DNA of 64,000 nt from Blasia pusilla (Eukaryota), in NCBI GenBank assembly GCA_050084515.1, contig CM114271.1:10664001-10728000 (forward strand), read 5' to 3'. Shown here piece after piece: positions 27,251 to 64,000 of the stretch. Position numbers and translations under genes: made by a program. The first letter of the stretch is position 1. Every line of letters begins with the position of its first letter. The notes below the pieces were generated by a model, which was given only the letters and a program-made list of their open reading frames with translations, ran no database searches and had not been told where the DNA came from.

Positions 27251-29213
27251 TAGCACACCTCCTATCATTTTCTAGAAGAAAACTAGGGTTTTTACCTATT
27301 TTTCTTTGTTTCTATTAACAGAAAAATTTGCCGGGGGCTGTGCATCCCCGCGTCATCTTGGCATACTAGAGGCTGCGCCCTTGGACCCCCGCGACGCATC
27401 AGGATGCCCCGCACCCTGATGCAATATAGGGTTAGATAATCCTAGTACCGCTACTCTGTAAGCCACCTACGTCATATTAGTATGACTCCTTTGACGTCTA
27501 AGTCGGAACCATCAATCTAGGCTTCTCTTCATACAAGGGGGTCGATCAGATTAATGGTGCTCAAAGGAGTGGATGTTGAGAATCCAACAATATTTCACAT
27601 GATTACGATCAAAGGCCGTCACGTCACCTTTCAGAATAACCTTGCTTGCTCAAAAAATCTCGGCTGTCTTCTTCTGAGCCGGGTTACTTCGTGAAGACGA
27701 AGACTCCTTCGTCTTCACACTTGCAGCCTTCTTGGTCTTGGACCGTGTCTCCACCACAAAGACTTCGTTGAGGATGTCTTCAGGCTAGTCTGAGGACTCT
27801 TCATTGATCTTCCTTGAAGATCCCTCTTCTTTGATAGTCACCTTCTTGATCTCCTTTGGGGACGTGACATCTTCTACTTGCAATAGCTGCACATTAGAGG
27901 CTGGTATTCTGGCAAGAGAGAGTAAGAGAGGAGAGGAAGAGAGGAGAGTCTCTCTTCAAAAAAAAAAGGGAGAATCCGCCTCCTCTCTTCTAAATTTTCA
28001 TTAGTTTCTTTATAAGTTTTTCTCTTTGAAATGTTGAAAAACTTTAGAAGAGAGTCACAAGTGAACCAGATTGGGTCATAAACTAACCTCGCTTTTCCAG
28101 GCTTCAATCCTAAACTAGACACACCAAGACCTCTTAAGCTGTGGTCTATATATATAACTAACATCACTCTATATGGTAGCCTAAGACTTTCACTACTGAC
28201 AGATGGGATTTATTTTCTCCTACGGCAATCTTGGAGATTGACAAAGATTATAGCAAATTTGGTGAGTTTGGTAGAAAGTTTTGAAAAGTTTGTTTAAACA
28301 CATGTCTAAGGTAAAGAAAGCGACCCTTAAGGCCTACATGGAAGGACTACGAGGAAAATAAAGGCAATCAACCTTTCATCCTCTTGGAATCCGACAAGTT
28401 GATAGACATAAGAAGTCCAGAAACGCTAGTGACGAAACAAGTAGAGAGAATGAAATGAAGGTAAGACATCATCCTTCCATGCAACCTTATCACAATCCAA
28501 TAGGTTGTCATGTTGATTGCTTCCATTTTCCTCTAAGTCCTTCCTTGTAGACCTCTCTTCTCTCTTCCTCTCTTCATGCAACTTGTCAGATTCTAACAAG
28601 TTGCATGATAGACGAAGGTTGAATCTAAGAAGAACGCCAAGACCGAAGCCTCCCAACTTGAGGCATGCCAACCTGTGAGAATGCGATAGGTTTCAAAAAA
28701 TAACATCTCGGTGAGGAATGGTTTGAAGGAAATGGGGGAACAAGGTGAAGGTGCAGAAGCCTGCCAGAATGCCTAAAAGGATTCTGGTAGCACATGAAAA
28801 GAAAATTCAGTGAAGTAGACAGCTTGTCGGAATCCAACCGGGTGGAGGACGTTAAACTAGGAAAATGCAGCAGCCAATCAATGTGACGTGCAACATGTCA
28901 GAATCTGACAGGTTGCCTAACTGGATCATAGAGAAAGAGATTTGAAAAAAATGCGAGCGTCTCGGAGGCGGTAAATCTTACAACCTATCGGAATTCGACA
29001 GGTTGCAAGCATGGTCTTTGGTTTGCAACCCAGATTAATCGGACGGGTTGCTCAATGAAGACCATCCAGCACACAAGAATCGCAACCCAAACACACAAGC
29101 ACCACTACTTAGAAGACACTTCAAGAAAGTTAATATCTTGAAAAAAATGGAAGTCCTTTATTACATCTGAGGGAAACTCAGGAATTTATATTTGCTCACT
29201 CAATCCAAAAACT

Positions 29214-32200
29214 CTAGTCTATGATTTCTTCAGCCTCGTCATCTACAAATTTACTCCTAACTCTCATCGTTTCCTGTACAAAATGAATGTCTTGGGATAC
29301 TAGTGGCTCATCTGACCGATTGTAGATGGGGATTGAGAATGTAGGGGAAGTTGATAACCTTGCTCCCCCCACCTAGGTGCACCATATTGGTCCCATGTGT
29401 GATTTGAAGAGTCCCAACGCCTTCCCCAGAAAAAAATCTTGTATGTTCTGCAAGGTGACACCCATCCACGATCAATATGTACTCCGCCGCTTGAAACCAC
29501 CAAATCCCTACTCCAAAATGCTTGAATCAATTGAACCCGATAAATCCATTCAACTCACTCGTCATCATCCGAGAGCTCTTCCAAAACAAGTGTCAGGCTT
29601 GCCCTCCCAATTTTTGGAATGACAAGCAGGGAAGATAGCATCACTACCAATGGATCTGCTGTTGGAGCAGTTGCCTTTGGAGGCGAGTTGTAGACTCCCA
29701 CCAGCCTTTTGTAATCAGCCTTTGAATCCTTGCAAAGGTTGAAAAGTTCCGTTCTTCCTTCAATGAAGAGAATATTCTTGCCACTCTGCCATGCACCTCT
29801 AATACTCGCCCCCGATAAACCTACCAAGTCCAAGACCAAATCACCCGGCCTTGAGCATAGCTTAATGAGGGTGTGCATCAGGGTAGGTGACTTCTCTATT
29901 TCTCCAAGTAGAGGCGTGCCTTTGATCATAAAGAGTCACGAGGGGGGATTGTAAAGGCTATCGAATGTGACCCCATTCGAGCATGGATCAACTGGATCCG
30001 GTATCTGAAACACCTAAAACATGTGCTCCGGTCTCACAAAACAGTATACATAGGAGTGCTCCATCTATCCACAAGGCAGGGGCAACACGATGTTAGCTTT
30101 AAGGTGGAACAAGCCTACAAACGGGTTCCTCTACAACTTCCTAAAAATCACGTGTGCCACTCGTCGGATCCTAACGGGTTGCACTGGTTGCTTTTTTTCC
30201 TTATCCAAGCATCTACCTGAGAAGCAACCTGTCAGAACCCGATGGGTTGCTCATAAACAAAGTAAGTTTTCTTGTAGCTCTACAACATCGTCAAAATGCC
30301 CCCGTGCAACCCATAGGCTTCCGACAAGTTTCCCTCCTTGATTTTTTCTTTATCCAAACATCTAGCTGAGAAGCAACCCGTCGGGTTTCGACGGGTTGCT
30401 TGTGAACAAAGTCAAAATTCTAGTAGCTCTACAACTTTGTCAAAAAGCTCCCATGCAACCCGTCGGATCCCGACGGGTTGCTTTTTTCCTGATGAGAGTT
30501 CTAGCTGAGAAGCAACCCGTCGGAACCCGATGGGTTGCTCATCAGCAAAGTCACAAGCCTAGATGGATTGTCCCATGCATAGTCCATGGGACATACCCAT
30601 TTTGGAGAAGTTTTTGCCCAAGCACCGTCAACTTCTCGATTGCAGCTCTCGACTCCTGAGTCAAAAAACTTTGCAATTCATCAAGCAGGGAAGTCGGGTG
30701 GAGTAGAATAGTGATCCTGCTCGTAGAATCCCTATGCCTACCTAATGATGAAGGATTGTATTCCACATCCTTACATAATCCTGCGACAGATCCCAACGCC
30801 TCCCGCTTTTGCTTCTCGCGAGTTTGTTGCCTGCTTGTTGGTGTGTCAATTACTTCAGACTTCATAGGAGTTTTTTTGTTGGGCTCCTGTGATACCCACA
30901 ATTTTTTACTTTTAGAAATTTACACATTTTGATTCAAGGAATACAGATTCTATGAAGTGAAGATTGTACATATAAGACTGTTTTAGATATTATGTTTGTG
31001 AAATTGGAAGAATGAGTTATATTGAAATAGATCACGAGCTCCTAGGACAAGGCAGAGAGGTGGAAAATCAAGGATTTGCCTTAGAGGAGATGGAAATGTG
31101 GTAACGAAGTCTAAAGACTAAGAGCGAAGCTTGGAAAAGACAACGAAGCCTTATTAAGAACCTGTTTATGAAGTGCTTCGCTCTTGAACAAAGCTTGATG
31201 AAGAAGAAGAGGAAGCAGTTCTTCGCTCTTTAGCAAAGCACGAAGAACGAAGCACCTGGAACAAGAGCGAAGAATGCAGTGCTTCGTCCTCAGGAAGAGC
31301 TTCATCCTCAAGGGAAGAAGAAGAAGTCCAGACTTAGCAGCGAAGCCAAGCTAAGACTCGAAGTGATTTGAAGCGGCACACCGTTAGAGTAGTTAGGCTA
31401 GGAAGAGGCGTGACTTTTTGGACCAGATAGGAAGTTAGGATAGTTACACCCAGCGGATTCATAGCGATCATAGGAAAAGATAAGAGAACCGTAGATTAAG
31501 GTAGTTACAAACTCTCAATAGACACTAGATTCGTAAGAGACGCTTCAGATCTTTGGACCTACTACTGCCTCGGAAGATATTTAAGAAGCATGAAAGTAGC
31601 TATCATCATCATTCTTTCACAAAGTCCATATGCTATAGGAATGGTCCAAGCAAGGGAGTAGTACCCTCTCGAGCTTGTATAACACTTTGAAGCTTTCTCG
31701 ATCTTGATGAAGTAGTAAAGCACTCATTTCTTCATTCTGATGTGCAATGCATATTCTGAGAATTCTGATTGGGTCTGCAGAGTGAAGAGTGAATAAGGAG
31801 AACACTTCCATCATTAGAATAATCAACGCGGAGTTGTAAGAAATCTGTTCGACAGAGAGTAGCCTACCTAGATGGATTGAGTTCCGAAAGTAGGAGAAGT
31901 CTGCTTCTTGTTGAGGTCTCTGTGAGGTTCTTTGATGTTGAGTGAAAATCTAGCTGAGCGTGATTTCAATTCCACTAGAGAGAATCGAGGAAAGAAATCT
32001 TGGTACTAATAGAGAGAAGAATACACTGATGAATGATTTAATCCAAAATGTACACACTTAACTACAACTATTGCAAGATAAACGTCATTTTCAACTCTCT
32101 TTTCACATAATCGTGATCCTCTTGGGGATCGAACTCATAAAATTATTGTAAAAAGATCAATTATTAAACTTCTTGTACATTACAGCTCCCTTGTCCGCCC

Positions 32201-33424
32201 CTCTCATCTAGAAGATTTTGCCTTTGAATGCCTCGACCCCTTCGCCGTGGCTTTCAAGCTCGCAATCGATTTATCCTTGGCAATCACTACCTTGGAGACC
32301 AACTCAACTGTCTCAATGGCTTGTTCCTCCGCATCTCCTTCAAAATATTCTCTAATCTTGACGAAGTTTGGGATGTCGTCCGTTCCAGCCACGACTGCAT
32401 CATACACAATTCGCAAGTTCTTGTCAGTTATTTCTTTGGAGTCGTTGAAGTCCAACCAGATTGGACAATTCAACACTTCCCACTCGGACATATCCTACCC
32501 CACCTCCATGTCGTACATGGAGAATCCTTCTCCATCAGCATGCAGCCCACAACTTGCATGTTGATGGGTATTTATGCCAGTTCCCTGCATTCACACTATA
32601 GATCAGGTATCTATATACCATGCGCTAGGCAACTCTTTGCCGGGATGTCTCGGCCGCTTGTTCTTGAAGATCCTGCTTGTTCTTAGCAAAATCCCGCTTT
32701 CTGGCGTCGAGATCCGCCTCAGGGAGGATGTGATTCTTGAACATAGTTTGGAAGCCTGGGTTTTTTCCGGCTTACCCCAGATGTCATCCAACCACAACTC
32801 GTAATCCTCAACAGCCTCTAGATTGGCCTCCTCTAGAATTGGCTCAAACTTTTTGAGCTCCGCTTGAAGACTATGGATGATCTCCTTCCCAAGCAGACGC
32901 AATACGTCCCAAAAAGACCATTCTTTCAGCCAATGATAGATGGCAGGGTCTGATACCCCCGGAGGATGATGTGCCACCCATTTTTAAGCCTCAATCCCCT
33001 TGAGACTAATTTTCATCAATCAAATCTGCCTAAATTTGGATATTCCTAAAAGTGCAAACCTATGAACACAGTCTAATGAGTCCTTTTCCCCCAATTCGAC
33101 CCTGTGGGTCTTCGTCCCTCTTCCTCTGGCATTTAATGATCGCCTTACTTCCTTGTAGAAGTCCTGGCCGAGATCTAGGTTGAGTATGGCAATGTACCAC
33201 TGCATCTTGCTCACAATGTACAATGGTGGCTACTGACACAGCATCTTGAATAAACTTTGCTCGCTCCGATTCTGAAACATTTTCCCTCCACTCCAACTCT
33301 AGTGCGGCACTTTTCTTGGCTGCCTGAATTTTTGACCAACATAGAATCATGACGGCTGCATCTTGGAAGATGTATGTATTTGACCAAGTCTTCTTCTTGA
33401 TCTGTGCACCCTTCGCGAGCATCT
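29214..33424 (-). pseudogene. Copy A cargo gene, 3' part (middle region plus MTase-like motifs X/I/II)
   Basis: EKSPTLMHTLIKLCSRPGDLVLDLVGLSGASIRGAWQSGKNILFIE (ORF 29555-29929); homologous to B 34435-37950; interrupted by the solo LTR; the motif-IV segment is deleted. Confidence 0.75.
30888..32184. mobile_element. Solo LTR (1297 bp) with 5-bp TSD GCTCC
   Basis: TGTGAT...ATTACA termini; GCTCC at 30883-30887 and 32185-32189; the flanks rejoin into copy A coding sequence. Confidence 0.88.
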
Positions 33425-35589
33425 GGGGGCTGGTATTCTGACAGGAGAGAGTAAGAGAGGAGAGGAAGAGAGGAAGAGAGGAGAGTCTCTCTTCAAAAAA
33501 GAAGGCCAAATCCGCCTCCTCTCTTCAAAACTTTTTGACATATTTGAAATTTTTGTTTGCTTTAAAATTCAGGAAATCTTTAGGAGAGAGTATTTAGTGG
33601 TCCACATTTGGCCCTAAAAAAACCTCCTCTTTCCTGGGGGCGAGAAAAAAGGAGACATCATAAGACCACCCTAAACATTTTTCCATCACTCTCCATGTGA
33701 GCCTAAGTTTCTTAACATTCCCTGTCTCGGTCAACAAAAAGCAGTGCCCTTGGTATTTTTGTTGGAGGACCACCCGGATGGGTACCTCTCTTTTTGCAAG
33801 GATTGTTGCGTGCATCATGGCCTCCCCTAAATTTCCCCATAACCAACTTTCTGTCGGTTATGAATGGTGTCTGCTCAAGACCAACTTTTTGAAATATGAA
33901 CAAATCAGATCCTTAGGGTGAGAAACCGAGAAGCTGCACCCCTCCCAACCCGTAAGAAAGCTCACCATAAGAAAGGAAAGATTTTTAGAAGTGATTTTCT
34001 TCCACCCTGCACCCACGACGATCTAACGGGTTGGGAATCCGAAATGGCAATCCGACATGTAGTAGGAATCCTGCACATCTTAGACAAGAAAAGAAGCCTA
34101 CAACTGGTTGGACGAATGAAGGGGAACGAGCCAAAAGTCAAGAAGCCCGCCACAATGCGCCAGAAGTTGGTCTCACCGGGATAGAGTCCGATCACTCAAG
34201 CACTCAACCTGTCGGAATCCGACAGGTTGCCTGGAAATGGTTAAAAAAGTGCAGTGGGCAAAAAGCAAAAAGTCGGAATCATACGGGTTGCAGAATTGTA
34301 ATTCTGAGTAGCTACAAGAACACAATCCACAAGTCTAAAAACATATTCCAGCAAACTTTTACAAGCACCATTATGGGTTGAAAAAATCTCGTCCTTTATT
34401 ACCTCTGAAGGAACCTCGGAAATGTACATTTCACCTAGTCTATGATTTCTTCAGCCTCGTCATCTACAAATTTACTCCTAACTCTCCTCAGTGACAGTAC
34501 CAAAGGAATGTCCTGAGATTCAAGTGGCTCCTCTGGCCGATTGTAGACGGGGATCGAAAATGTTGGCGAATTCGAGAGCCTTGGCCCCCCCCTAGGTACA
34601 CCATAAGGGTCCCATGTAACCTGTCTGGAGTCCCACCGCCTTCCTCGGCAGTATACCTTGTACGCTCTGCAATGTGACACCCATCCAGTATCAATATCTG
34701 CTCCGTCCCCGGTAATACCATTATGGAAACCGCAGAGGTAGAAGGAATCCAACACGTCTGAGAGAAGAAAAGAAGCCTACGCCTGCCTTTACGAGTTGAG
34801 GGGAAGGTGCCAAGGGAAGAAGCCCGCCAGACTGCCTCTTAAGTTGGACCAACAGGGAAAGGGTCCGATCAGGCAACCTGTCGGAATCAGACAGGTTGCC
34901 TGGAGGTGGTAAAAAGGGAGCAGTGGTCAAAAAGCGAAAAGTTGCGAGGAGAAATCGACGGGTTGCACTGGTCATAAAGTGAAAGTTGCAAGCAGGAGAA
35001 ATCCGACCGGTTGCAAAGTAGAAGTCCGTGGAGTACATAGACGATCACATTCGAAAAGAAAAATGATCAGCAAACATTTACAAGCACCATCGATCGAAAA
35101 AATCTTCTGCTTTATATCATCCGAAAAAAGCTGGGAATATGAATACGCCCCAACAAGCCTTTCGTATTCTGCCTTTGCCTCCTTGCAAAGGTCAAGCGAT
35201 TCTGCCTTCCTCGAGGCGAGAGAATGTTCTGCCACTCTGCCAGCGCCTTTGATACTTGCCCTGAAAGTCCCACTAAGTCGAACACCAAGTCACCCGGCCT
35301 TGAGCAGAGCTCGATGAGCGTTTGCATCAGGGCTGGCGACTTTTCCCTTCCTCCCAGAAGTGGGGTACTGTCTTGCATGTAAATTCCCGGGGGAGAATAG
35401 TACAAACTATCTAAACTGTACCCATCTGAGCATGGATCCACAGGATCCTGGATCTTGAACACCGGAAATTGTGCTCGGGCGAACGAAGCGAAGAGCGTAG
35501 GAGTGGTCCATCTCAGTAAATCAAAGACGTTGGAAACAATGTCGAAACTAAAGAAGTCGCCTTGAGAACATTTTCAATAATCGACTTTG

Positions 35590-35970
35590 GATCAACTGCC
35601 GGAGTCGGACGGGTTGTTTTGTCGGACCAACCCGCCGGAACCCGGCGGGTTGCGATTGCTTTTGGATTTTCCCAGTTGATTTTGGTTTTGGATGCAACCC
35701 GTCGGAAGGCGACGGGTTGCTTCGGCCTAGAGCAGCCCATGCTCGCTTTGAGAGCAACCGTCGCTATCACGGGTTGCATCCACAAAACCAAAATCAAGCG
35801 AAAACACTAAAAAGCAATTGCAACCCGTCGGGTTCCGACGGGCTGCGTACACCGCGGTTTTCCCTGTGTATGTGGGAAAGATGCAACCCGTCGGAAACCG
35901 ACAGGTTGCTCTCAGCCGAGCATGGGCTGCTCTAAGCCTGCAACCCGTCGCCTTCCGACGGGTTGCTCAC
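35590..35970. repeat. 27-bp palindrome array in cargo intron 3 (copy B)
   Basis: About seven GCAACCCGTCG..CGACGGGTTGC variants. Confidence 0.9.
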
Positions 35971-38079
35971 GAACAAAAAAAAACCCAGATTGATTCTCAT
36001 TCTACACATCATTATAAGATAATTGAAATTATTGTACAGGAATTGAGCCTTACCCGAATCTGATTTGTCGCGGATCAGAGTGGGTACTCGTTTTTGATGA
36101 TCCACCATTGTGCCGTCCTCCACTTTAGCGACCTCTTGACGCACTGGAGGTTGAAGAGCTCGTCCTCGCTCCCTCCAATCAACACCAAGAAGCAGCCCCC
36201 CTGTCACTCGGATAGGCGCGCCGCAAAGGAGAACAAAAGTGCAATCTGGTCATAAGTGAGCGGCACATTCCACTCAAGTACCTCGTCCGACGGATTCTCG
36301 CCCCAAAGTCGCAACCCTGAGGGCAGATCGGCGATCAAGAGATCCACCGCAACCTCTTCAACCACTCCATTCACCGTCCAGGCAGCGTGCCCATTTCGTT
36401 GGAGCTTCCGTCCCAGCGTTGTCAATTTTTCGATGGCTGGTGTCGACGCTTGAGAACTGAAGCTCTTCAGCTCATCCAGTAATGGAGTGAACTGAAGGAG
36501 GACGCTTGTCCGGGTCATTGTTTGTCTGTGTCTTCCCAGGGCGATGGGTGTATTCTCCTTGGGACAACCGGGCACCTCTCGCTTCGCTTCTCCCTAGCCT
36601 GGGGGACGGCTTGTCGGGGTTTCTATGACCTCGGATTTTGGTGGCGTTTTCTTCGCCGAGGACCTGGTCCGACCCTCTCTCCCCGCTCGTCCGGACGATT
36701 CCGCCTCGGCCTCAAATCTTGACCTCTCTTTGGGAAGATTCGGCCCTCAATTGTTCCCTCCCCTCGCCTTGCCTTTGAGACCATTTGTGGATTTGCCTTT
36801 GGTGTCCAGGACCTTGAAGCCAACTCAAGCTGTCTCGTGGGCTGCTCTTCGCATCTCCTCCGAAGAAGTCTTGACCGGGCGAAAGTGGGGATGTCGTCTT
36901 GTCGAGGCCCTTTGCATCATGAAGCACTCGTAAGTCCTTATCCGTGATGTCTTCAGGGTCGTTGAAGTCGAGCCAAATGGGGCAATTCTCCACCTCCCAA
37001 TCGGACATGTGCTGCCCCATCTCCATGTCGTACATGGAGAATGTCTCTGCATCCGGCGGCGAAGCCCACAACTTCAAGGCTACCGGTAATTTTCCCCACG
37101 TACCTGGATTCTTACACTGGACAAGGTACCTGAAGACCATCCGTTGGGCAACTTTTAATCAAACAGAATCGGCCGTCTACTCCTGTAGATCTCGCTTCTT
37201 CTTTGCTTGATCCCGTTTGTTCCCCTCTACTTCTTTGTCAAGCTCTGCCTGAGGGAGGACGCAAACCTTGAACATGGTCTTGAATCCTGGGTTTTTTGTT
37301 GGCTTGTCCCGGATGTCGTCGAGCCAAACCTCGTAATCTCCAGAACTTTCAAGGTTTGCTTCCAGCGGAATGGGCTCCAATCTTCTGAGCTCCGCTTGCA
37401 AACCGTCCAGCACAGACTTCCCGATTACCCGCAACGCGTCCCAGAACGACCATTCGCGTAGCCAATGCGAGATCACTGGATCAGACACACCCGGAGGATG
37501 GTGTGCCGCCCTCTTCTGGGCCTCTGAGCCCTCGAGACTGATTTTCATCCGTCGTATCCTCCTGAACTCGCTTATCCCGGACAACGCAAACCGATGCACG
37601 CGATCCAGCGACACTTTCTCCCCAATCCGACAATGCGGATCTTCATCCCTCTTCCGCTAGCGCTTGATAATTGCCTTCAGCTCCTTGTAGAACTCCGGAC
37701 CAAGTTCGGGGTTGAGAATGCTGATGTATCGCTGCATCATGCTCGCCTTGTATTTCCTTGCAGCAGATACTGCAGCTTGGATGAATTTAGCGCTCAGACG
37801 AGATACCTTCTCCCTCCGCTCTAGCTCGGTCGGCGCTTTTCTTTGACTGAATCTTCGACCAGCAAAGGATGGTTACGGCTGCATCTTGAGAAATAAACTT
37901 GTTTGCCCAAGTTTTCTTCTTGATCTGAGCACCCTTTGCCAACATCTGATTGACGAGGACATCGCCCAAGAACCCCCTGTACTCTCCCGGGTGCGTCGTA
38001 AGCACCTTCCTCACCCGATCGCAATCCTGGATCCAGTGGTGGGTGACATTCCCCTCCGATACAATCCTGCACATCCAAA

Positions 38080-38630
38080 CTCAACCCGTCAGGAAATTAC
38101 ATGGGTTTCTGCAATCCTTCGGACTCCAACGGGTCGTCACAGCTCAAGGTCGGATTCTAGCAACGAGCTTAATGATGCAACCCGTCGGAGTCCGACGGAT
38201 TGCATTCAGATTTGCTAATGCCTGGTAAGCAAACCGTCAGAGTCCGACGGGTTGCTCGATAGGCCGCCTTGTGAGGGTGTTCTTTTAAGAATGCAACCCG
38301 TCGGACTCCGACGAGTTGCTCGAGTGACTGCAGGTTTAGAAGGTTTTTTCCCCAAAGCAACCCGTCGGAGTCCGACGGGTTGCTTGCCTCGCCGCTATTT
38401 TTCCCCATATCAACCCGTCGGACTCCGACGGTTTGCTTTGGGCCAAAAACTAGTTAAATCTATGTTCAATCAAACAAGTCATCGGAGTCCGACGAGTTGC
38501 AATCTTAAAAAAAGATCCAAAAAAGCGTGCAGTCGAGCAACCCGTCGGAGTCCGACGAGTTGCTTTCGGCAAAAACAAACCTAACCCATTCATCAATCGA
38601 GCAACTCGTCGGAGTCCGACGAGTTGCGAA
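38080..38630. repeat. 27-bp palindrome array in cargo intron 2 (copy B)
   Basis: Perfect GCAACCCGTCGGAGTCCGACGGGTTGC at 38357-38383 plus about nine variants at roughly 50-65-bp spacing. Confidence 0.92.
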
Positions 38631-40090: not shown

Positions 40091-40098
40091 TATTTATA
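40091..40098 (-). promoter_or_regulatory. Putative TATA box of the cargo gene
   Basis: TATAAATA on the minus strand followed by a pyrimidine-rich tract, about 250 bp upstream of ATG 39838. Confidence 0.5.
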
Positions 40099-40184
40099 CT
40101 TTTCTAGCCGTTGGGCTGACCGTTGGGTCCCGTCGTCCTTTCGACGGCGACGTGCCGGATGTTACGGAATTCCGGACGTGAAAA

Positions 40185-40845: not shown

Positions 40846-41041
40846 CCGGCTAGCTTCGGGTAATTTTCGAGTTACCAGGACTCAGCGGGTTCCAAGTGTG
40901 ATGTGCAACCCTCGCTTCCCAAATCGGTAACATATTGCAACAAAATTGAATGTGTTCTGGTGGATCCATTGTGTCGAACAATGTCACCCACCGAATTCAT
41001 CTTGTCAAGTAAAAATCATCAGAGTATCATTTCCTATTCAC

Positions 41042-41048
41042 TATAAAT
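41042..41048 (+). promoter_or_regulatory. Putative TATA box of the transposase gene
   Basis: TATAAAT followed by (ATTCTC)n and ATG 41106; the same layout is conserved in copy D (~57856-57940, minus strand). Confidence 0.5.
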
Positions 41049-41254
41049 TAAATATTCTCATTCTCATTCTCATTCTCAATCTCCTCCGGTTGGAATCTTC
41101 TTAGAATGGATAATTATGTTAAGCTCACTTGTGGCAGTCATCTGGCGGCCCTTCCTCAATCGGAAATCATTCGACCCCAAGCTCGTGAGTCTTTCATAGC
41201 AATGGATGAAAATTTTCTGTCTGTTCGATTTCTTCTTCAAATTGGAACCATCTT

Positions 41255-52145: not shown

Positions 52146-54066
52146 CGAGCATCTCATCCACTTAGTCCTGCCCCAAGAATCCTTTGTACTCCATCGGGTG
52201 CGTTGTAAGCACCTTCTTGACTCTATCGCAATCTTGGATCCAATGATGCTTCACGTTCCCCTTCCGAGACAATCCTGCAAATCGTCAAGACAAAGTGAGA
52301 ATTATTTTGCAATGTAATCCGTCAGTTTTTGTCAGGTTGCACACAACACAAGATGACAAACAAGGTCGTGTGCCGACTAAGTGCAACCCGTCAGACTCCG
52401 ACGAGTTGCAACGGTATCCAAGAGAAAGCCCGTGAGATAGGTTCAATGTAGTTTCTACCTCCACAAGACTTCAAAAAGTTGCACAACTGTTAGCAGATGG
52501 CAGAAATGTTGCAACCCGTCACACTCTGATGGGTTGCAACATCGATAGCCGCTGGACATGAATGGAGGAATATCATCATTTATTTTTTGCATCCATGGCC
52601 TCCTTGCAACCTGTCAAACTCCCACGGGTTGTTAATTTGTAGAACCTTTTGATCTTGCAACGAGTCAGAGTGTGACGGGCTCCATATTGCTGTCAACCAG
52701 AGTTGATTTTGGAGTCGATCTCGTAACCCGTCGGAGTCCGACCGGTTGCAAGGAGGCCTAGAATGCGGAAAATAAAGAATGTTATTCCATCAATTTAGCT
52801 AACACAAATGTGTTATACAATCCGTGGAAAGCCGACGGGTTGCAAGGTGGTATTTAAAATTACCAATTGAAGCCTTATATGCAACCCGTCGATCTCTGAT
52901 GGGTTCAATTTTTTTTGAAAGTGAGTCTCCTTCTTAGAAATGTTTCACCTTATGCAACCTGTTGGAGACCAACTGGTTGCATATAAGGCTTCAATTGCTA
53001 ATTTTAAATACCACCTTGCAACCGGTCAGAAGCCGACGGGTTGCACAACACACATATCATCCAAGAAAGTGACTACAAAGTTGTCTTGTATGAACCCATC
53101 GGTCTCTGACTGGTTGCCACATGGTGGAGCGACATGGGCCAAAATACCGTAAGGCAACCCGTCAGAGTCCGACGGGTTGCTGTACGGTGTCCTAAATTGC
53201 CCATGGAAGATCCGATGGGTTGCTCCTATGTTGTCCTATGATTCCAAACAAAATGTAGCTAGCTGAATTAGGCAACCCGTCGGACTCCAACGGGTTGCTG
53301 TAGTGTGTCCCAAATTGCCCATGCACGATCCAATGGGTTTCCCTTTTGACCAACGATTAATTGCAAACAAACTCTAGTAAGCTGAATTGGGCAACCCATC
53401 GGACTCCGACAGGTTGCAGCAAGCTAAAAAATCTAAGAGAGAAAAATAAACACTTACGTATTTATTGAGTGTATCGCCGTCTCCCCTATGGCCATGTGAT
53501 GCGGAAAGGGATGGAGGACGACAGCCCTCACACAAAAATGCGCCTCCAATGAATTTGGCCGCTTCTCGACAAATTGGGACCATGCCTTGAAGCTATGGTT
53601 CCCATCCCAGATGAAAAAATTTAGGTTCATCATCCAGCTGAATTCAATTCCTTCGACAACTCTTTTGAACTCCGCATCTCTCATTCTCCAGAACGTGTCC
53701 AAGTTCTCCAGGCCTTCCTCCGTCAGGAGAGACTGACTTCCATGTTCATCGTAAGGCTGAATATAGAACGGCAGGAAGCTGTTGACGTAAGATGTTGTGG
53801 CAATGGAATGCTTCAACTTTGCAATATCCTTGTCCGACTAAATTTTCCCGGACGTACTCCATGGTTCGAAGTTGACAAAGAGGAACTCGGGGGGACTTGT
53901 GGCCGTCCACCACCGCCATATGCTTTACAACCTGACGTGATGGTTAATAAGTTGCAATTTTCTTCCAAAGTGATCATCAAAGCTTAGTAAGTTATGTCGA
54001 CGACTCCTTACCCTCTCGAAAATTGGGTCAGTGTTGAGGCCGGCCAGCTGGTTTGGGACAGGAGGA
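52146..54066 (-). pseudogene. Copy A cargo gene, 5' part including the ParB-like exon (53458-53931) and a palindrome-rich intron (52275-53457)
   Basis: FFIWDGNHSFKAW exon homologous to B 38649-39121; the exon at 52146-52274 continues into 33424 across B's TSD. Confidence 0.8.
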
Positions 54067-54204
54067 GGAGGCGCAGTAAGAGGAGAGGAAGAGAGGAAGA
54101 GAGGAAACTACCTTCAACCCAAAGAGATACTTTTTTTGAAGAGAGTTTCTTGTGATTTGAAGAGAGTTTCCGTTGGGTTGAAGAGAGGAAACTTTTTGTG
54201 TGAC

Positions 54205-57200
54205 CCATCAGATCTTGCCCTACAAGTGGATCCACGTCCAGGGTTGCTCTGAGATATATGCCACCTTTTGAGGTTGCAATCCACCTTAATGACCGGAATC
54301 CCATACTGTTGAACTACCCCTGAGACCGGATGTTGCGAACTTCCAGCAAGGGAGGGCTTTTGAAATAAAACATTCACTGATTACTTCTACTCGGATTTGG
54401 GAGTAATCCGGGGTCTCCAAATACCAGGGCGGCATAATTTCTTCATCCAAATCAATCACTGGGTTTGTTCCTCGATGCTGCCTCTTCACTTGCCTGAAGT
54501 CAAGATACTTATCTGGTCTCCACGAGTCTTGCTCTGATTGCTCTACCACCATCTGTATGGGACGTCTTGAAACACGCCCACGAATATCCCCACAAATGTG
54601 GACATATTGCTCAAGGGGAGTTCCTGCTACGCACCGATTGAAGGCTTCCACATAGAGTTTCTCATCACCAGATCTCACAGCCGCCCTGACATAGAGCTCG
54701 TAAATCAAAGGTCCCTTTCCTTTAGTTATGCCTTTTGTGAAGATATGGGATGCTGGAGACTGTAGCATTGCTCTTGCCTGGTCTTGTTGGCATGCCTCCA
54801 CAAGTGAAATTCTTTGGCATGCTTGTGACGACCTCAAGGAGGAATGAACACTCTCTACTCCACTTATGTTGGGGCAGAGGGCATTTTCATGAATGTTCAA
54901 TCCCTGCAACGACGGCAATATGAGAAGGAAAAAAAAAGGCTCTATAAGCGAAGAAAAAAGAAACTTGTCGGAACCAGACGGGTTGCAAGTTAGAGGCATC
55001 CCATGAATGACTATGCAACCCGTCGGATTCAGATGGGTTGCAAGTAACTTTGGTCACTACGGGCTAGAAGATCCAAGTGCAAGTCATCGAAATCTGACGG
55101 ACCACACATGGATTTTCCAGCCTCCGACTTGAAACGGGTTGCAAGTCGGAGGCATCCCTGGAGTGTCCCAAGAACCTCTTACTGCAACCCAACACCAAAG
55201 AACCTGCTACTTCAACCCGTCAGAATCGGACGGGCTGTGAGAAGCAGGCCGGTCCGGTCTCAAAAATCCTTGTGCAACTTGTCGGATTCTGTTGGCTTGC
55301 AAGAAGTGTCAACATACAAAGCTTTGGAACTTGTTGGAATTTGACGGGTTCCAGTTAACTTGCACTGATGCAACGTGTCTAGATGCGAGGAGTTGGAGAC
55401 AGCCGCGACTTGTCTGAATGCAAGGAGTCGGAGACAGACGCAACTAGTTAGAATCCGACAGGTTGCAGACAGACGCAACTTGTCAGAATCTGACGGGTTG
55501 CAAACCGAGTTAACTTGCAGCCTTGCGGCTTGCAACCCATGTGGGTCAAACGATTTGCAGGCCTTGTATACATGCAACTTGCAACACGTCGGGATCCGAC
55601 GGGTTGCACAAACATTCTTCATGCATCCTGTCGGGCTCCGACGGGTCTGACACATGCAACCAGTCAAGTTCCGACGGGTTGCACAAACATTCTTGATGCA
55701 AACTGTCAGTTTTCAATGGGTTGCACACTCAGGAAACTAGTCGGATCCGACGGGTTGCTTGGTTTCTGCGATTTGAAATTCCTATAGTTCCCACGATTCT
55801 CAACTTGAGCTGCAACTTTTCAAACAATTCTCAGCATGAGTTTCAAAGGATGAAATAGTGAACTCACCTGCCGCATGAAATTTCCCCATTGTCTCATTTG
55901 TACAGTCCACGAATTGAGCCAAGAGTACAACTCTTTGTACTTCCCCTCAATCGCATGCTTCCTCCACCACCCATGAAGTTCTTCTTGGCACTCCATGGCT
56001 TGTTTCAAGGTTTTGCTGTCCTTGCAGCATTGGAGTAGAGTGACATGCTCTGTTCTCTTATTCTCCTTGATGCAAGATTTGGTGTACCGAGTCATAGACT
56101 GTTGCCAATGGAAATCATTTGACCTTTCCCTCTCTGGTTGAACCTCTCAATCCCATAACACTTCCCTGATAGAAATCCATCGAGGTTTTGCATTATCCGC
56201 CATGAATCCATAAATTTCCGGAGGTGGCCTTTTTTTTTTCCTTCACTACCTCCAACAAGAGTAACCAACACATCTTCAAACTGCCAACGTCTTTTGCTTT
56301 TACCTCACAGACAAATATAGTTTTGAGTCCCTTCTCCACATGGTCGTAAACATGAGCACTGATGGTCAACCATCCATTCAGCACTTTGTAGCAAATATCA
56401 AAGCTTACCTAGCTTCCGTAGAGATCTTCCACTTCCCTCATTCGATCTATAAGATCGAGGCCACTCGACAGCCCTGTAGTTGATATTTTGAAGATATAAG
56501 CCCTGGATCCTTCGCCTCCTTGGCCCATGAATTGCCATCTCTGAATAAATGGAAATGTGGATTTGGCCTTGATTCTGGCAATGGCATCCATTTCGGCTGT
56601 CTTTCCATCAAGTACCCATATTTGACACAGCAAGTTCCGGAAGCATTCAGGATCAGCGAGAAATGCAAGATTTTCCCAGAGTTGTTTCTCCTCAACAGCC
56701 GTGATCTTGCCTTGCCCAAGGATTCCAAGCAGTTGTTCACAAATTTGCGATGTTGTTGTTAACTTATCACTCCGGGCTTTGATCCTGGAGATTTTCTATA
56801 TACCTCGACCACTTTCTTTGCCACATCCTCCTTGATATGTCCCTGAATTGCACCGGTAGCAAGATGAATGTGGGAGCCAACATGAATTGCCAGCCTCATG
56901 TACTCGGATGTAGAAATGAAGTCGTGCACAATGAAAAATATGTATGCAAGACATGCTCCAAGGCAAAAAGGGGATGCCTGACAATGAGGACATCGATGGC
57001 CTCTCGGCGGTATGGTCGCACCGACCTCATTTGGTGTTGGTGCATCCTTTGGGGGGAATTAGGACGTATTGACTCGCCCATTGCGCTCTAGATATGGGCA
57101 GCCTGGACTTCTACACTCCAAGGCTCCAACGCATTGGCGTCGGGAAACAATCCAAGGACCATCTACAATTGAAGCACTAGTCCGTTGAAGCCTGCACCAT

Positions 57201-57856
57201 CGATGACAATCAGACTTTCAGTCCATACCTTTCAAGTGTCCTCCATCTTTCTTTTGAGCAGGACCAGCAAGTGGAGCCAACTCAAAAATGCAATTACATT
57301 CACACATGGGCGGCAGCTCATCGACAAGAATGTGCTTGAACATTTTAAAGGGCAGAGACGACAACAAACTATTGCTTGATACTCGCAAGAGGAACGAGTA
57401 GCCAGAGACAGGGCCTGATTGGTGTCCGAAAAATCCAGTGAGGTTGACGACATCCAGAATGTCTTTAGGAAGTACAACATACCCCTAAGTCTTACATATC
57501 AGTGGGAGTGCCAAACCTAGAGCTTGGTGCACTAGGAAATTCCGGAACGTCTACTTGGGAAACACAGGAATTCAGAGGCAAGCCATGAACTCTTTAATGA
57601 CCATTTTTTAGAGTTAGGAGATTCCATACTTGACAGTCTATTATCACTGGCTGGACTGTCTCACCTATAATGTCCTTCGTACCGTCCACCCTAACATCCT
57701 TGGAAACAAATATTTTTCCAATTTGGAGAAGAAATCGCAATGAGAGGAAATTTTCCTCCACTGGTATGTAAGACTCGAGAGCTTGCGGTCGAATTATTTC
57801 TCATTGAGGAAGGGCGCTAGATGACTGCCACAAGTGAGTTTCACATAATTATCCAT
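54205..57856 (-). pseudogene. Copy D MULE transposase with the DDE core retained and the SWIM region deleted
   Basis: Minus strand: RLAIHVGSHIH, VSFD..KVLNGWLTISAHVYD, GFMADNA, FHWQQ, SGVESVHSS; many stops and frameshifts. Confidence 0.8.
54960..55760. repeat. 27-bp palindrome array in the transposase intron (copy D)
   Basis: More than ten degenerate variants. Confidence 0.85.
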
Positions 57857-58014
57857 TCCTAGTTGATTCCACCGGGTGGAGAATGAAATAAGAATAAGAA
57901 TAAGAATGGGAATGAGAATGAGAATATTTAATTTATAGTGAATAGTGACCGTTACTGTCTCGATAGAATTTTACTGATTAGATGATGTTTGGTAGGTGAG
58001 AGGATTCAATCCTG

Positions 58015-59290
58015 TTGCAACTTGTCGGAGTCTGATGGGTTGCAAAATTTGGGACTCGGACACGTGGGTTGCAAAGCCACGGAGTACCATCGTTTGTTAG
58101 AGTCCGAATGCAACTTGCAACCCATCGGAGACCGTTGGGTTGAACGCGGTTGTCAGTCGGTTCCCCCTGCATTGTGACCTGTCTGATTCCGTTGGAGTCG
58201 GGATCCACGGGACCTCGCATGGATTTCCTACGGCAACCCATTAGACTACGACGGATTGAAAAGATACCTCACCTTGCTTTCCCTTTTAGAGGTAACCGAG
58301 TTGCGGGGGATCTCGCATTGATTTCCCTTGTACAGTGAACCGTGCAAACCGTGAGGGACAAACGAGTTTTTCGGAGACCGTGCCTCAATTTTGCCGTATG
58401 GTGGGAAGTGTCCAACCCATGGTAGATCTTGTCACCCCAAGATGAAGGAAGCTGCAACCTATCGGAGACCGACGGTGGCCTGGGAACCATGCTTTGTCAC
58501 CCCGGACGAGGGAAGCAGGCAACCCGTCGGTCTGCAATGGGTTGCCTAGGTACCTCGCCTTGTTACCCCAAGACGAGGGAAGCGACTCGCCGGTCTTCGA
58601 TGGGTTGCCCCGGTATCTCGCCTTGTTACCCCAAGACAAGGGAAGCGTGTAACCCGTCGATCTCCGATAGTTTGCACGTTTCCCACGTGCAAAGTTCCAT
58701 AACGGCCGACATTGCCGTCGATACAACGGTTCCAACGACCCAACGGTCAGCTCAAGGGCTCGAAAACTGTAAAAGGTTGAGATTTTGCTCATTTCCCCTT
58801 TTCATTTTGCTTGGTCATTGGAGGCCTAAAAGCAACCCGTGGGACTCCGACGGGTTGCAAAAGGTGAAATAATGACCAAGTACAAGGCACTTTTGGGGAT
58901 AATGCAACCCATCGGAGTTTGACGGATTGCAACTAAATTTCCTTTAGGAAATTTGGTTCAAAAGTACCATAAAATTTCTGCTTTTGGGTCTCCACTTGCA
59001 TCACTTCATGCCGATGGGCATCCATGTGCTACTCGTTAGACCCCAATGGGTTGCACATCGTTGCCATTTGCGGACAGTGGTGCAATCTGTCAGATTCCGA
59101 CGAGTTGCAGAAACTATATTGGGCCTCCAAGAGATTGCATCTCGAAGAGATTGTTGCAACCCATCAGAGTCTGACGAGTTGCGCATCCTTGCAATCTGCA
59201 AAGAGTGGTGCAACCCATCGGAGTCCGACACGTTGCACAAACTTTGCACATGACTCTTTGGTGCAACCATACGGAAACCGACGGGTTGTA
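58015..59290. repeat. 27-bp palindrome array (promoter region fused to cargo intron 2 by deletion, copy D)
   Basis: More than twelve degenerate variants. Confidence 0.85.
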
Positions 59291-59329
59291 GGGGATCATT
59301 ATTCTAACTTTGTGTTCACATTTGTATGA

Positions 59330-62300
59330 TTGTATTTGAGGGGAACGTCACCCACCTCTGGATCCAAGCATGCAACAAAGTCAAAAAGGTGCTTACAATG
59401 CAGCTGTCGTAGTATAAAGGATTCCTCGATGAGGACCTGGTCGATGAGATGCTTGCGAAGGGAGCTCAAATTAAGAAGAAGACTTGGGCGAATACCTTCA
59501 TCTCCCAAGATGCAGCGGTGATGATTCTATGCTGGTCCAAGATCCACGTAGCCAAGAAGTGTGCCACATTAGAACTGGAGTGAAGGGAAACGTCTCGGCG
59601 TCAGAGCGGGCAAAATTCATTCAAGATGTCATTTTTGCAGCTACAAAGTACACTACGAGGATTGCAATGGTACATTGCAATCCTCAACCCCAAACTTGGC
59701 TAGGAGTTCTACAAGGAGTTGAAGGCGATAATCAAGCGCCAGCGGAACAGGGACAAAGACCCATAGGGTTGAATCTGAGAGAAGGTCTCTCTACAAGGCG
59801 GATCCGACTGATGGAAATCAGTCTCGAGGGGACTGAGGCACAAAAGTGAGCGACAAACCATCCTCCAGGAATATTAGATCTAGTGATCTCCCATTGGCTT
59901 AGAGAATGGTCCTTTTGGGACGCACTACGACTTACGGGAAGTCGATGATTGTGGGTCTACAAGCAGAGCTCAAAAATTTTGAGCCAGTTCCAGAGGAGGC
60001 CAACTTGGAGGTTGCACAAGATTATGAACTGTGGCTCAATGACATCAAGGATAAGCCAACAAAAAACCCAGGCTTGTGGATGATGTTTAAGAATCACATC
60101 CTCCCTCAGGCCAATCTGGACAAAGAAATAGAGCGCGAAAATGGGATTGTGCAAAGAAGAAGCGGGATTTTTGGAGCAGGCGGCCAAGTCATCCCCACAA
60201 AGAGATGCCCAGCGGATGGTATACAGCTACTTCATATATTGTGTGAATGCAGGTACCTCGCGCAAATATCAGGCATCTTGCAAATTGTGGGCTTCTCCTC
60301 CTGATGAAGAGGGATTCTCCATGTACGACATGGAGATGAGGCAGGACATGTCCGAGTGGTAGGTCTTGAATTGTCCAATCTGCTTGGAGTTCAACAACCT
60401 GATGGACATGATAGATAAGAACTTGCGCATGGTGTATGACACAGTCCTTGTTGGCAGGGACAACATCCCAAACTTCGTGAAGAGTGATGTATTTTTCGAA
60501 GGAGATGCGGAGGAGCAAGCCATTGAGACAGCTGAGTTGGTGTCAAAGGTAGTCACCGCCAAGGACAAATCTACAGTGGGCTTGAAAGCAAAGGCAACAG
60601 GGTCGAGGCATTCCAAGGCAGAGTCTTCAAGGCAAGAGGGGCAAGAGGGGCGGACAAGGTCCTTGTCAAAGAAAATGCCTGTGGAGTGTGAGGTAACCGA
60701 GACACCAACAAGCCGACAGCAAACTCGCGAGAAGCGAAAGTGAGAGGTGTCAGGATTGTCCGAGGGAGGAGATAAGGATGTGGAATACACTCCATCATCC
60801 TTGGGCAGGCATAGGGAAACAACAAGCAAGATAACTGTCCTTCTACACCTGACTAATCTTGTTGATAAATTGCAGAGTTTTAGTTCTCAAGAGTCGACAG
60901 TTGCCGTTGAGAAGTTGACCGTGCTAGGGCATAAACTTCCCCAAAATGGGCACATCCCATGGACAGCTCATTGGGTCACTGAGGAGGTGGCAGTGGACCT
61001 CCTCATTGCAAATTTTCCCTCTGGATTTTGTTTGTGGGACGACAATCCATCTGACACTCTTCCAGATTGGAATGTCCCACTTTCCTATGAGCAGATCGCT
61101 CTTCTATTTTCTGTTGCAGACGCATATCTCAGTGACAGGGGGTGTTTCTTGGTGTTGACTGGAGGGCAAAGAAGAGCTCTTCAACCTTCAATGTGTGAAG
61201 AGGTTGCTCAAGTGGCAGATGGCGCAATTTTGGGTGATAAAAAAATGAGTACCCATTGAGATCGGCTACAAATCAAGTCCGAGTAAGTTCCAACTTGCTG
61301 GTTTCCTGTTTTTTCCCTTATTTTTTACAGTAGGTTCAAACATGCAACCTGTCGGATTCCGGCAGGTTGCAAATCCAGTCTCCAATGCCTTTGCTGATAA
61401 GCAACCTGTCGGAAAGCGACAGGTTGCTTATATGTAAGGTACAATTCTACTTGCAACCCGTCGGGTTCCAAAGGGTTGCAATTAGAGAGCTCTGCAGATT
61501 GTGCCACTATCTAGAGAGCAAACCATCGATTTTTGACAGATTTCACAATTCTTCCATCTTTTGTTTAAGCTCACAATATTTTGCACCTACCTTGTTCACA
61601 GATGGAGCACTCATGTGTCTACAGCTTTGTGAGACCGGAGCACAACTTCCAAGTGTTCTAGATCTTGGATCCAGTTGATCCATGCTCCGATGGGTACACA
61701 TTAGATGGTTTTTACAATTCACCCCCGTGAGTTTTCATGCACGAAGGGACCCCCTTACTTGGAGGAAGGGAGAAGTCACCTACCCTGATGCAGACGCTCA
61801 TGGAGCTTTACTCAAGGTCGGGTGACTTGGTCTTAGACTTGGTAACCCTATCAGAGGCGAGTATCAGAGGCGCATGGTAGAGTGGCAAGAACATTCTCTA
61901 CCTTGAGGGAAGGCCGGAACTTTTCAACCTTTGCAAAGAGGCAAAGGCGGATAACAAGAGGCTGGTGGGAGTATACAACTCGCCTCCAAAGCCAACTGCT
62001 CCAACTCTTGAGCCTCCATTGGTAGTGACACCATTTTCACTTCTTGCAATTCCAAAAATCGGAGGGAGGGCAAGACTGAAAATAATTTTGGAAGAGCTCT
62101 TGGACAATGATGAGTAAGTTGAAAGTTTTCTCGGGTTCAATTGATTGAAGCATTTTGGAGTTGGGATTTAGTGGTTTCAAGCGGCGGAGCACATATTGAC
62201 ACTGGATGGGTGTCACTTTGTAGAGCATACAAGATTTACTGTCGAGGAAGGCGTTGGGACTCAAATCATCACACATGGGACCGATATGGTGTACCTAGGG

Positions 62301-62452
62301 GGGCAAGGCTCTCGAATTCCCCTACATTCTCAATCCCTATCTACAATCGGCCAGAGGAGCCACTAATATCCCAAGATATTCCTTTTGTACAAAAACCTAG
62401 GAGAGTTACGAGTAAATTTGTAGATGACAAGGCTGAAGAAATCATAGAATAG
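59330..62452 (+). pseudogene. Copy D cargo gene (MTase-like part; ParB exon deleted; intron 61283-61601)
   Basis: VDLLIANFPSG..LSDRGCFLVL (60747-61259); EKSPTLMQTLMELYSRSGDLVLDLV..GKNILYLE (~61770-61905); C-terminus SKFVDDKAEEIIE as in A and B. Confidence 0.78.
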
Positions 62453-62614
62453 ATCAAATGTAAATTTCCGAGTTTCCCTCGGATGTAATAAAGAACTTGC
62501 AGTTTTTCTACACCGATGGTTTCTGAAGTGTTTTTTGAACTGCTGTGCTTCTGTGTCTCATCGAGCTCGTTCTTGATTATGTCTTGATATCTCTATTTGA
62601 TGGTCTTTGTAATG

Positions 62615-62905
62615 AAACCCGTCGGAATCCGACGGGTTGCAAACTAGGGACCAATTTTGCAACTTGTCAGATTTTGACGGATTGCAAACCAGGGACCAAG
62701 TTTGCAACTTGTCGGATTCCAACGGGTTGCAAACCAAGGACCAAGTTTGCAACTGGTCAGGTTTCGACGAGTTGCAAACCAAAGACCAAGTTTGCAACTT
62801 GTCTGATTCTGACGGGTTGTAAACCAGGGACCAAGTTTACAAATTGTCAGATTTGGACGGGTTGCAAACCAAAGACTAGGTTTACAACATGTCGGATTTC
62901 GACAA
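62615..62905. repeat. 45-bp tandem units, each containing the 27-bp palindrome (downstream of the copy D cargo gene)
   Basis: GCAAC.TGTC.GATT..GACGGGTTGCAAACCA.GGACCAAGTTT, about six to seven units. Confidence 0.9.
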
Positions 62906-63377
62906 GATGTAAGGGTTGACATTGTTTCTTCTCTTCTTATTTCTCCTCTCTGGGACTTGTCTGTAATGTTTTCTTAAATGACTTGAATGGTCCGTGTTTT
63001 GGGTTTCTCCTTTGTTGTGGTAATCTCTAGTGGACATTTGTTTTTCCATCTTCCAACCCGTTGCACTTCGACATGATGCAAGCCAAAAATGGAACTTGGA
63101 TGACTAAAGATGTATACAGAAATTCTCCTGTCTTGCGATATTTGCAGACCTCGACATAAATTCTCGTTTCTTGCAATATTTGCGACGAGATGATAAGCAC
63201 TTCTTCTCTTGACGTGTCTTGCAACCCGTCGGATTCCAAGAGGTTGCATATCTTGATGCAGCTTGTGAAGCTCTCTTTTTCAATCCTTTTTTATTTCTTG
63301 ATTTGATTCAACCTGTCGGATTTCGATAAGTTGCATGTGAGGACTCAATATTGTGAATTTTTGGGACCCTTCCCTCC

Positions 63378-63696
63378 ATGGTTGCATAAAAATGGACAAG
63401 TCCTTCCCTATGACAGATACTGACACACAAGTCCGGACATATCCACGGACATGGGTTCCAATAAGTGGGACCCGCACTTATAATTCATGTTGGAAGGCAA
63501 GGCAAGGCAAGGATAAGTGGAGCAATGAGGGAGGAGGGAGTGGAGTTGGAGGGAGGAATAAATGGGGGAGTATGTATGAAACACGAAGGCAAGTAAGGGG
63601 AAGGAGAAAGAAGGGAAAGGTGGGGCCCATATGGACAAGTCCTTCCATAGGACGGACATAAGTCCACGGACATGGACTTTGTCCACACGCAACCTT
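63378..63696. mobile_element. MITE-like element, same family as 4427-4720, inserted in copy D
   Basis: Imperfect TIRs GGTTGC..TGGACAAGTCC / GGACTTTGTCCA..GCAACC; internal similarity to 4427-4720. Confidence 0.65.
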
Positions 63697-64000
63697 ACTT
63701 CCTTCTATATCTTTTTTCGTACCTAGGTTATGTCACGAGTAAAAACTCTATTGAAACAGGGTAGGTCTTCATAACATGCCTTGTTTTTTAACCCTTATGA
63801 ATCTTAATCTTGTCATGCAACTTATCAGAATCCAACATGTTGTAGGTCCAGATGATTGGTTGGTTGCAGGTCTGGATGATTGACTGCTATTGCAACCCGT
63901 CGGTTAGCGATGGGTTGCTTATCTAGAGGCAGCCAGTGGAGGTCTCCTTCTGAGCCCTTTTTGTTTTCATGATGTCATTCAATTTGTCGAATTCCGACAA

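Follow-up and report, generated by a model that had tools for sequence, protein, structure and literature searches.

Closest described systems

Mutator-like elements (MULEs) share target site duplications (TSDs) of 9–10 bp, terminal inverted repeats (TIRs), a transposase with a DDE-type core containing DxxH and a C-terminal SWIM-type finger, and an extra open reading frame (ORF) opposite the transposase, according to the portion of PMC6446971 considered here. A corresponding organisation, the two transposase features being putative, is found in a transposon family of Blasia pusilla, copies of which (A, B, D, E and F) lie in or next to the window analysed in this work, a stretch of 64,000 nucleotides of contig CM114271.1 (C1:10664001-10728000) in the 390-Mb assembly GCA_050084515.1. 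The family nests in older copies of itself about three times above chance, and we regard this self-nesting, with a probability of roughly 0.55, as a by-product of family-specific targeting at the scale of chromosomal domains. A preference for low-copy or genic DNA is ascribed to MULEs, and coding MULEs sit in other transposable elements in 9% of cases in maize and 7% in rice, in the passages of PMC3903597 that deal with them, whereas 70% of the young copies here are in repeats. Moreover, the transposase is too diverged for a Pfam MULE match, the ends are short, GA-rich and imperfect, and the cargo gene differs from the accessory ORFs in PMC6446971, whose main text does not contain the word 'methyltransferase'.

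The VANDAL elements of Arabidopsis, with their VANC proteins, likewise combine a MULE with an accessory protein and with arrays of repeats, specific to each family, in their non-coding regions, as far as the relevant part of PMC5735166 goes, and arrays of this kind are present in the Blasia family. The likeness is one of organisation: the accessory protein is here a fusion of a predicted ParB/Srx domain with a methyltransferase-like domain, the repeat is a 27-bp palindrome, and fold and Pfam results for the cargo point to families other than VANC. With the bacterial ParB, Noc and KorB clamps, the cargo shares the predicted N-terminal fold, but it is eukaryotic, intron-bearing and fused to a helical region and the methyltransferase-like domain, and its motif is DGNHR. 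ParB loads on palindromic parS.

An N6_N4_Mtase-like domain is also shared with those N6A/N4C DNA methyltransferases of eukaryotes that came from bacteria (MpDN4MT1, the clades of Iyer et al. and those borne by DIRS1), from which the cargo differs in its motif IV, which is DLPS, DLPT or DMPS compared with TSPPY in MpDN4MT1. The usual form of this motif in such enzymes is DPPY. Transposon-borne, probably inactive methyltransferases and a ParB-HTH-fused algal family have been described in PMC4738411, in the available part of which no MULE-borne or land-plant ParB-NTPase fusion is named. A host 4mC (N4-methylcytosine) methylase has been reported in Marchantia, the passages considered making no mention of ParB (10.1101/2021.02.12.428880), and neither Mutator nor MULE is mentioned in the parts of PMC11923412 and PMC12885004 that were covered. 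The literature searches made here listed no description of a MULE with a ParB/methyltransferase cargo, although supplements (e.g., that of PMC4738411) or Repbase-type entries could list the family.

The element and its abundance

From left to right, the element consists of the left end, the cargo gene (minus strand), a central palindrome array, the transposase gene (plus strand) and the right end, with a whole length of about 11–12 kb. The three copies with both ends have TSDs of 9 (copy B), 9 and 10 bp, within the 8–11 bp of MULEs, and the ends are imperfect GA-rich inverted repeats of ~60–100 bp, of the kind accepted as MULE TIRs. The transposase translations of D and F contain SFD...FMAD...DAFH...AES, which we take to be a DDE-type core with DxxH, and the C-terminus carries CxC...CKH, to which the Pfam SWIM profile gave a weak match below the cut-off (E 0.019–0.23). 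The Pfam MULE/DDE domain (PF10551) did not match the transposase at E 0.5, word-index searches with the family proteins, transposase included, found no homologues, and sequence searches of the PDB returned nothing useful. Judged by its TSDs and ends, the transposon is best filed as a Mutator-like cut-and-paste element.

B contains 35 occurrences of a 27-bp palindrome, GCAACCCGTCGGA-N-TCCGACGGGTTGC, which are located in introns, centre and left arm; the GA tracts of the terminal repeats are free of it. Five copies have a density of 2.3–3.1 palindromes per kb, whereas none was present in 50 random loci without family DNA; the palindrome is family-specific.

Self-insertion above chance

The preliminary description of this window had proposed, from copies nested at this single locus, to test whether insertions of the family are enriched in or near its other copies. 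In a sample drawn from the whole genome, self-insertion does exceed target abundance. Searches with the ends gave 1,768, 1,804, 2,052 and 1,588 candidates, the family having ~1,800–2,000 ends. The best 40 of each search were scored, a sample and not a census, and clustered copies in it are not independent. Nesting was judged in all sets by the same test on 280 bp of outer flank per end. Young copies were found in family DNA at 27 of 94 sites (29%, confidence interval 20–39), comprising 19 of 65 B-type and 8 of 29 F-type ends. Of the B-type ends listed, 38 of 39 left ones and 27 of 39 right ones entered the set (dropped were the copy in the window and two paired ends, and 11 were not fetched), and the F-type set has 29 of 39 listed ends. 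The random background was 98 of 1,140 windows from 60 loci of 6 kb, or 8.6% (95% confidence interval 3.2–15.1), the family share by coverage of these loci being 9.5%; under a bootstrap of the random rate, 26 nested sites among 88 have a chance of 8e-5.

Two other transposon families of the window served as controls. Young Gypsy elements were in family DNA at 7 of 59 sites (Fisher p=0.017 against 27/94), once six uninformative flanks, two paired ends, one tandem and the window's copy had been dropped, and a MITE (a transposable element of the miniature inverted-repeat type), an older control at 85–88% identity, at 2 of 29 (p=0.022). Other repeats held 39/94 family sites, 29/59 Gypsy sites and 25% of random windows, and the family share among sites in repeats was 41% compared with 7 of 36 for Gypsy (p=0.03). 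As a separate observation, at least four family copies are apparently stacked, with alternating orientations, in ~10 kb at C4:497207-504429 (L061, L062).

Islands rather than palindromes

The enrichment extends well beyond the host element. Of 40 points placed 42 kb away from young left ends, on their outer side, 9 (22.5%) fell in family DNA, which is close to the nesting rate (p=0.53) and above the random one (p=0.006). Within 500 kb, 35 pairs of young copies were counted against 7.2 expected, the corresponding figures being 6 vs 6.2 for Gypsy-Gypsy and 22 vs 13.7 for family-Gypsy pairs. In a separate set of 37 right ends, 32% had a young left end no more than 250 kb away, compared with 8% for the genome, 11% for Gypsy and 8% for the MITE, and random loci contained 28% family DNA near a young copy vs 6% far from one. 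Moreover, 57 of 141 sampled ends belong to clusters of at least three, against 11 in simulations (maximum 29 in 1,000), and subfamilies co-occupy the islands (pairs within 500 kb: B-F 19 vs 3.8, B and F together with D 17 vs 5.6). Gypsy and MITE positions showed no clustering and little following of the family.

A close-up view of the insertion sites is given by the 26 nested sites that could be mapped, which are even along the host element (Kolmogorov-Smirnov p=0.35), with a weak base preference at the target. Their median distance to a palindrome is 352 bp vs 271 bp for uniform placement, 8/26 are within 200 bp of one vs 41% expected, and 7 are in the cargo gene vs 10.8 expected. These sites do not support targeting of the cargo gene, nor that of palindrome arrays, which had initially been proposed as a possibility; the targeting that remains operates over distances from 40 kb to 1 Mb.

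Two side observations concern the chromosomal distribution. The islands on C1-C5 are often ~9–12 Mb apart (in Mb, C3 10.3, 21.1; C5 11.3, 26.6, 35.4; C4 0.9, 20.6, 42.5). For the older D-type left end, 8 of 41 rows are on C11, a small contig, and 2 on C12, much more than the genome share of these contigs, which are possibly a non-recombining or sex-linked piece.

Orientation of the nests

Nests are inverted relative to their host in 22 of 27 cases (23:5 including one borderline case, p=0.0009). Same-orientation nests form long direct repeats, which would be lost by intrachromatid recombination more than inverted ones, leaving the 22:5 skew. In this regard, internal sequence is missing from both sides at 11 of 30 Gypsy long terminal repeat (LTR) loci, nine of which have an exact 5-bp TSD. 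Direct-repeat recombination is thus common in this genome, and the loss of direct nests fits its many solo LTRs. If direct nests are lost, the true self-insertion rate would be nearer 40%.

Proposed domain-scale targeting and its alternatives

According to the explanation that we favour, new copies would integrate preferentially in a limited set of domains of 0.1–2 Mb, several per long chromosome, which already consist of about one quarter family DNA, the site inside a domain being close to random. As about a quarter of the domain sequence is family, ~30% of new copies land in an older copy, and self-nesting would exceed chance mainly because the family accumulates in Mb-sized islands that other transposons do not favour. 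The domain preference would most likely come about through an integration complex that reads a chromatin state. That the host makes this state is a tentative attribution, short of even odds, and that the cargo protein makes it seems rather unlikely. The cargo protein would most likely bind the 27-bp palindromes in the introns and the central promoter region, and protect or regulate the family as VANC does for VANDAL.

Several points weigh against domain-scale targeting and the steps attached to it. The random estimate rests on just 60 loci, and the family share among repeat sites (41%) exceeds the random one (26%) with only P=0.066. Older D-type ends were nested in just 2 of 24 cases (p=0.06; five without a matched end were dropped), both in the same orientation. 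The hosts of the five same-orientation nests are 87–96% identical, not more diverged as loss by recombination predicts, and for this reason the inverted excess may be a bias at insertion. The islands themselves may result from selection or deletion outside them, and the cargo protein may have no tie to either islands or palindromes.

Among the alternatives, local hopping, already considered for this locus in the preliminary description, keeps the most ground and is nonetheless doubtful. Under this explanation, a copy would reinsert in the vicinity of its donor, so that islands would expand around founders and nests would result. The excess of close pairs is indeed strongest for the nearest ones (6 vs 0.7 at up to 50 kb), and kinship between right-end neighbours is slightly closer (0.051 vs 0.083, P=0.089). 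However, in three sets of 30–38 copies compared within 1 Mb and at a distance, neighbours were no closer in the other two (P=0.58 and 0.89; 24 near pairs in all), in a test that is weak because few true parents were sampled. Moreover, hosts are 70–97.5% identical to B and never near-identical, and diverged subfamilies share islands.

It is improbable that the family possesses a system like ParB-parS, in which the cargo protein would load on the palindromes, spread or bridge over tens to hundreds of kb, mark or bind DNA via its methyltransferase-like domain and recruit the transposase. If this were true, the family would build and keep its own chromosomal islands, sparing host genes.

A generic sink, in which insertions of all transposon families survive only in gene-poor repeat regions, corresponds to the heterochromatin sink raised earlier for this locus and is quite improbable. 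Young copies and Gypsy elements are both frequent in some repeat (66/94 and 36/59, compared with ~33% of random windows), and A and B themselves received a solo LTR and a full Gypsy element. Gypsy hits other repeats as often as the family does but does not share its islands: Gypsy and the MITE are in family DNA no more than the background predicts and form no joint clusters with it, among controls that comprise no second young DNA transposon family.

Still less probable is a centromeric nature of the islands, as centromere units or their relics, together with a centrophilic element. In 9 of 11 bryophytes sampled in the part of a preprint considered here (10.64898/2026.09.17.752431), the centromeres consist of nested transposon clusters; the examples of that preprint are, however, LTR retrotransposons. 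One cluster each was found on C6, C7 and C8, but there are four on C1 and on C2 and three on C4 and on C5, instead of one per chromosome. Finally, direct tethering, in which transposase or cargo protein sitting on a palindrome array would direct adjacent insertion, is scarcely credible despite family-specific palindromes, the landing of B 183 bp from one of them and a strong orientation bias that could reflect a geometric constraint, since nested sites lie farther from palindromes than uniform placement predicts and enrichment is still present 42 kb away.

The nested locus

Copies were found by self-comparison and reading of the window, and 29 kb past its end were fetched, for which window-equivalent coordinates are given. 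The left part of copy A (27896..33424, plus strand, 70–81% identical to B and D) contains a degraded left end and 3' cargo exons on the minus strand, into which a solo LTR (TG...CA) has landed at 30888..32184 with the TSD GCTCC, as previously recognised; copy E, outside the window, holds a solo LTR 76% similar to it. The claim that copy B splits an exon of A is confirmed by a 9-bp TSD, CGAGCATCT, at 33416..33424 and 52146..52154 (plus strand), across which the exon of A reads on. Copy B, complete between its TSDs (33425..52145, plus strand), has the same orientation as A and measures 11.36 kb without Gypsy. It is thus one of the rarer same-direction nests, its host being only ~70–81% alike. 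Resumed copy A (52155..54067, plus strand) contains the exon end, a palindrome intron (52275-53457), the ParB exon (53458-53934), an intron and the end of exon 1, and is cut at D.

Within B, the cargo gene runs on the minus strand at 34390..39838, with an approximate 3' end, and contains stops and frameshifts. Its exons are an N-terminal one, the ParB/Srx-fold exon (38649-39121), a long middle exon that ends in the methyltransferase motif-IV region and the methyltransferase motif-I exon (~35000-35535); a palindrome-rich GT-AG intron spans 38066..38647 (minus strand). The central palindrome array (40180..40830) separates the divergent cargo and transposase genes. The latter (41106..51750, plus strand) comprises an N-terminal Cys/His domain, a partly deleted core and a putative C-terminal SWIM-type zinc finger, with a palindrome intron at ~49690-50190 (plus strand), and lacks ~800 bp of the core, which makes B non-autonomous. 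It is split by the full-length Gypsy-type LTR retrotransposon (41255..48612, plus strand; LTRs 96% identical, TSD ATCTT) whose family was used as control.

Copy D (54068..64000 and on to window-equivalent 65131, C1:10729131; minus strand) has a transposase core and lacks the cargo ParB exon and exon 1. It carries at 63380..63700 the MITE-like element of another family that was used as control, with 3,695 candidates genome-wide. D had been taken for a second insertion into the first exon of A, opposite in orientation. Its terminus is indeed at 54068, in the last codons of the upstream coding exon of A; the clean insertion did not withstand the examination of its far end. The nine bases past that end (TCGGTTTTC) differ from the nine before 54068 (CAGGAGGAG), and A does not resume there: the 5' transposase half and centre of copy E follow on the minus strand, and then retroelements. 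With no TSD and no resumption of A, a clean second insertion is rejected. The insertion points of B and D are 1.9 kb apart in A, with palindromes in the intron 52275-53457 as reported, but D is ~610 bp away from this intron, beyond a further exon and intron, and is therefore not its immediate flank.

That E is the inverted right half of A is not supported: the divergences are compatible with it, yet the missing exon-1 part of A is absent up to window-equivalent 93000. A 91% match between the left flank of A and the distal flank of E is a common repeat, also present at L160 and L204. The locus therefore holds a single clean nest, that of B in A, together with a nest or junction of A, D and E that a deletion has altered. 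In the likely course of events, B inserted cleanly in A, D would have inserted in A or E, and the right-hand halves of A and of E would have been lost through a deletion from one of the ends of D or through recombination of two D-like copies. Altogether, the single-locus claim was half right, and the genome-wide pattern is real, at another scale than proposed.

Other features of the region are noted here for completeness. The internal loss of exon 1 and ParB exon in D (window 59209-58810) runs between two palindrome arrays, which suggests that such arrays promote deletions. Short duplications occur near the left arm (window 34059-34942 and L001:1406-1640) and include a second degraded methyltransferase motif-I exon piece in D. 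Copy F begins at window-equivalent 72632 and stops abruptly at a long (CT)n run at window-equivalent 82520 (L002 ~9520), with no right end in the next 10 kb. The window also contains a chromosome-internal degenerate telomere-like TTTAGGG array of ~79 units (5516-6290) and tandem units of 267–270 bp, ~82% alike, in two blocks (10591-12597).

The cargo gene

The structural model of the cargo ParB exon, built from a 44-sequence alignment, has a predicted local distance difference test score (pLDDT) of 90 and superimposes on KorB with Z 8.7 and a root-mean-square deviation of 2.1 over 91 residues. A structure search gave 13 rows at Z>=2, with ParB, Noc and KorB among the matches, and all 13 are titled as, or presumably belong to, the ParB/Srx type; in the Atlas, ParB_N was present in 11% of one match cluster. 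The predicted fold thus matches the ParB N-terminal domain, with GNHR (in DGNHR) as its GxxR-type motif. Sulfiredoxin, SspE and DndB-type proteins have this fold too, and the function therefore does not follow from it.

The exons at the end of the cargo gene are similar to N6/N4 DNA methylases, with Pfam N6_N4_Mtase matches under the cut-off (E 0.002 for a family exon and 9e-6 for a Riccia relative) and N6_N4_Mtase-like annotation in 28 of 30 Atlas matches. Motif IV precedes motif I, the order of beta-class methyltransferases, in the family translations and in P0115. The catalytic (D/N/S)PP(Y/F/W) motif was not found in this domain, the family having DLPS and its relatives DLPT, DMPS or DMPT (Riccia) and DVPF (Adiantum), an atypical motif IV that leaves catalysis uncertain, for which reason the cargo is not classed among active enzymes. 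For a Riccia relative, a fold predicted from the single sequence of its methyltransferase part reached a pLDDT of 33 and was not used.

A profile search found 112 relatives, the named ones among 20 looked up being from Riccia sorocarpa (9) and Adiantum (4). Riccia P0115 (1,207 residues) aligns with the family exons from the ParB through the methyltransferase domain at 24–38% identity. UniRef names the Riccia proteins P0113, P0115 and P0116 'Trimethylguanosine synthase', which is probably a wrong annotation of the N6/N4-methyltransferase-like domain. The surroundings of a distant ParB-like relative, covered at 17 metagenome loci, are degraded and contain no transposase, methyltransferase or palindrome arrays, so that the link between this cargo and a MULE is known only from this genome.

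Between subfamilies, the ratio of nonsynonymous to synonymous substitution rates (dN/dS) of the cargo is 0.06–0.07 at a dS of ~1.4 (two pairs; the out-of-frame B and A rows were left out), and 0.3 within one subfamily, which points to purifying selection between subfamilies. Three RNA runs contain 244–356 matching cargo reads each, mostly 85–95% alike and mostly in the sense direction, assuming the usual stranded library, and 2, 3 and 2 spliced reads skip the palindrome intron corresponding to B 38066-38647. The cargo is transcribed on the sense strand and spliced; the source of these reads is not B but diverged members of the family or a related organism. A lead only, an ORF upstream of the reverse transcriptase in a Gypsy-type pol region (L101:3169-3765:+) has no Pfam match and contains ENV and RxR motifs that we presume to be those of C5-cytosine methyltransferases.

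Meaning for transposon biology

It has long been asked how transposons choose their targets and reach high copy numbers while leaving genes intact. Mutator elements have a reputation for seeking genes, and here a family of this kind makes up ~9% of a plant genome, piled in its own islands. With a named protein (ParB/Srx plus methyltransferase-like), a candidate site (the palindrome) and a read-out (islands and inverted nests), the link between them is directly testable. Moreover, as cargo relatives are multi-copy in Riccia sorocarpa, annotated as hypothetical or 'trimethylguanosine synthase', and also occur in Adiantum ferns, the system is probably old and overlooked, and would represent a second possible source of DNA methylation other than 5-methylcytosine in seed-free plants.

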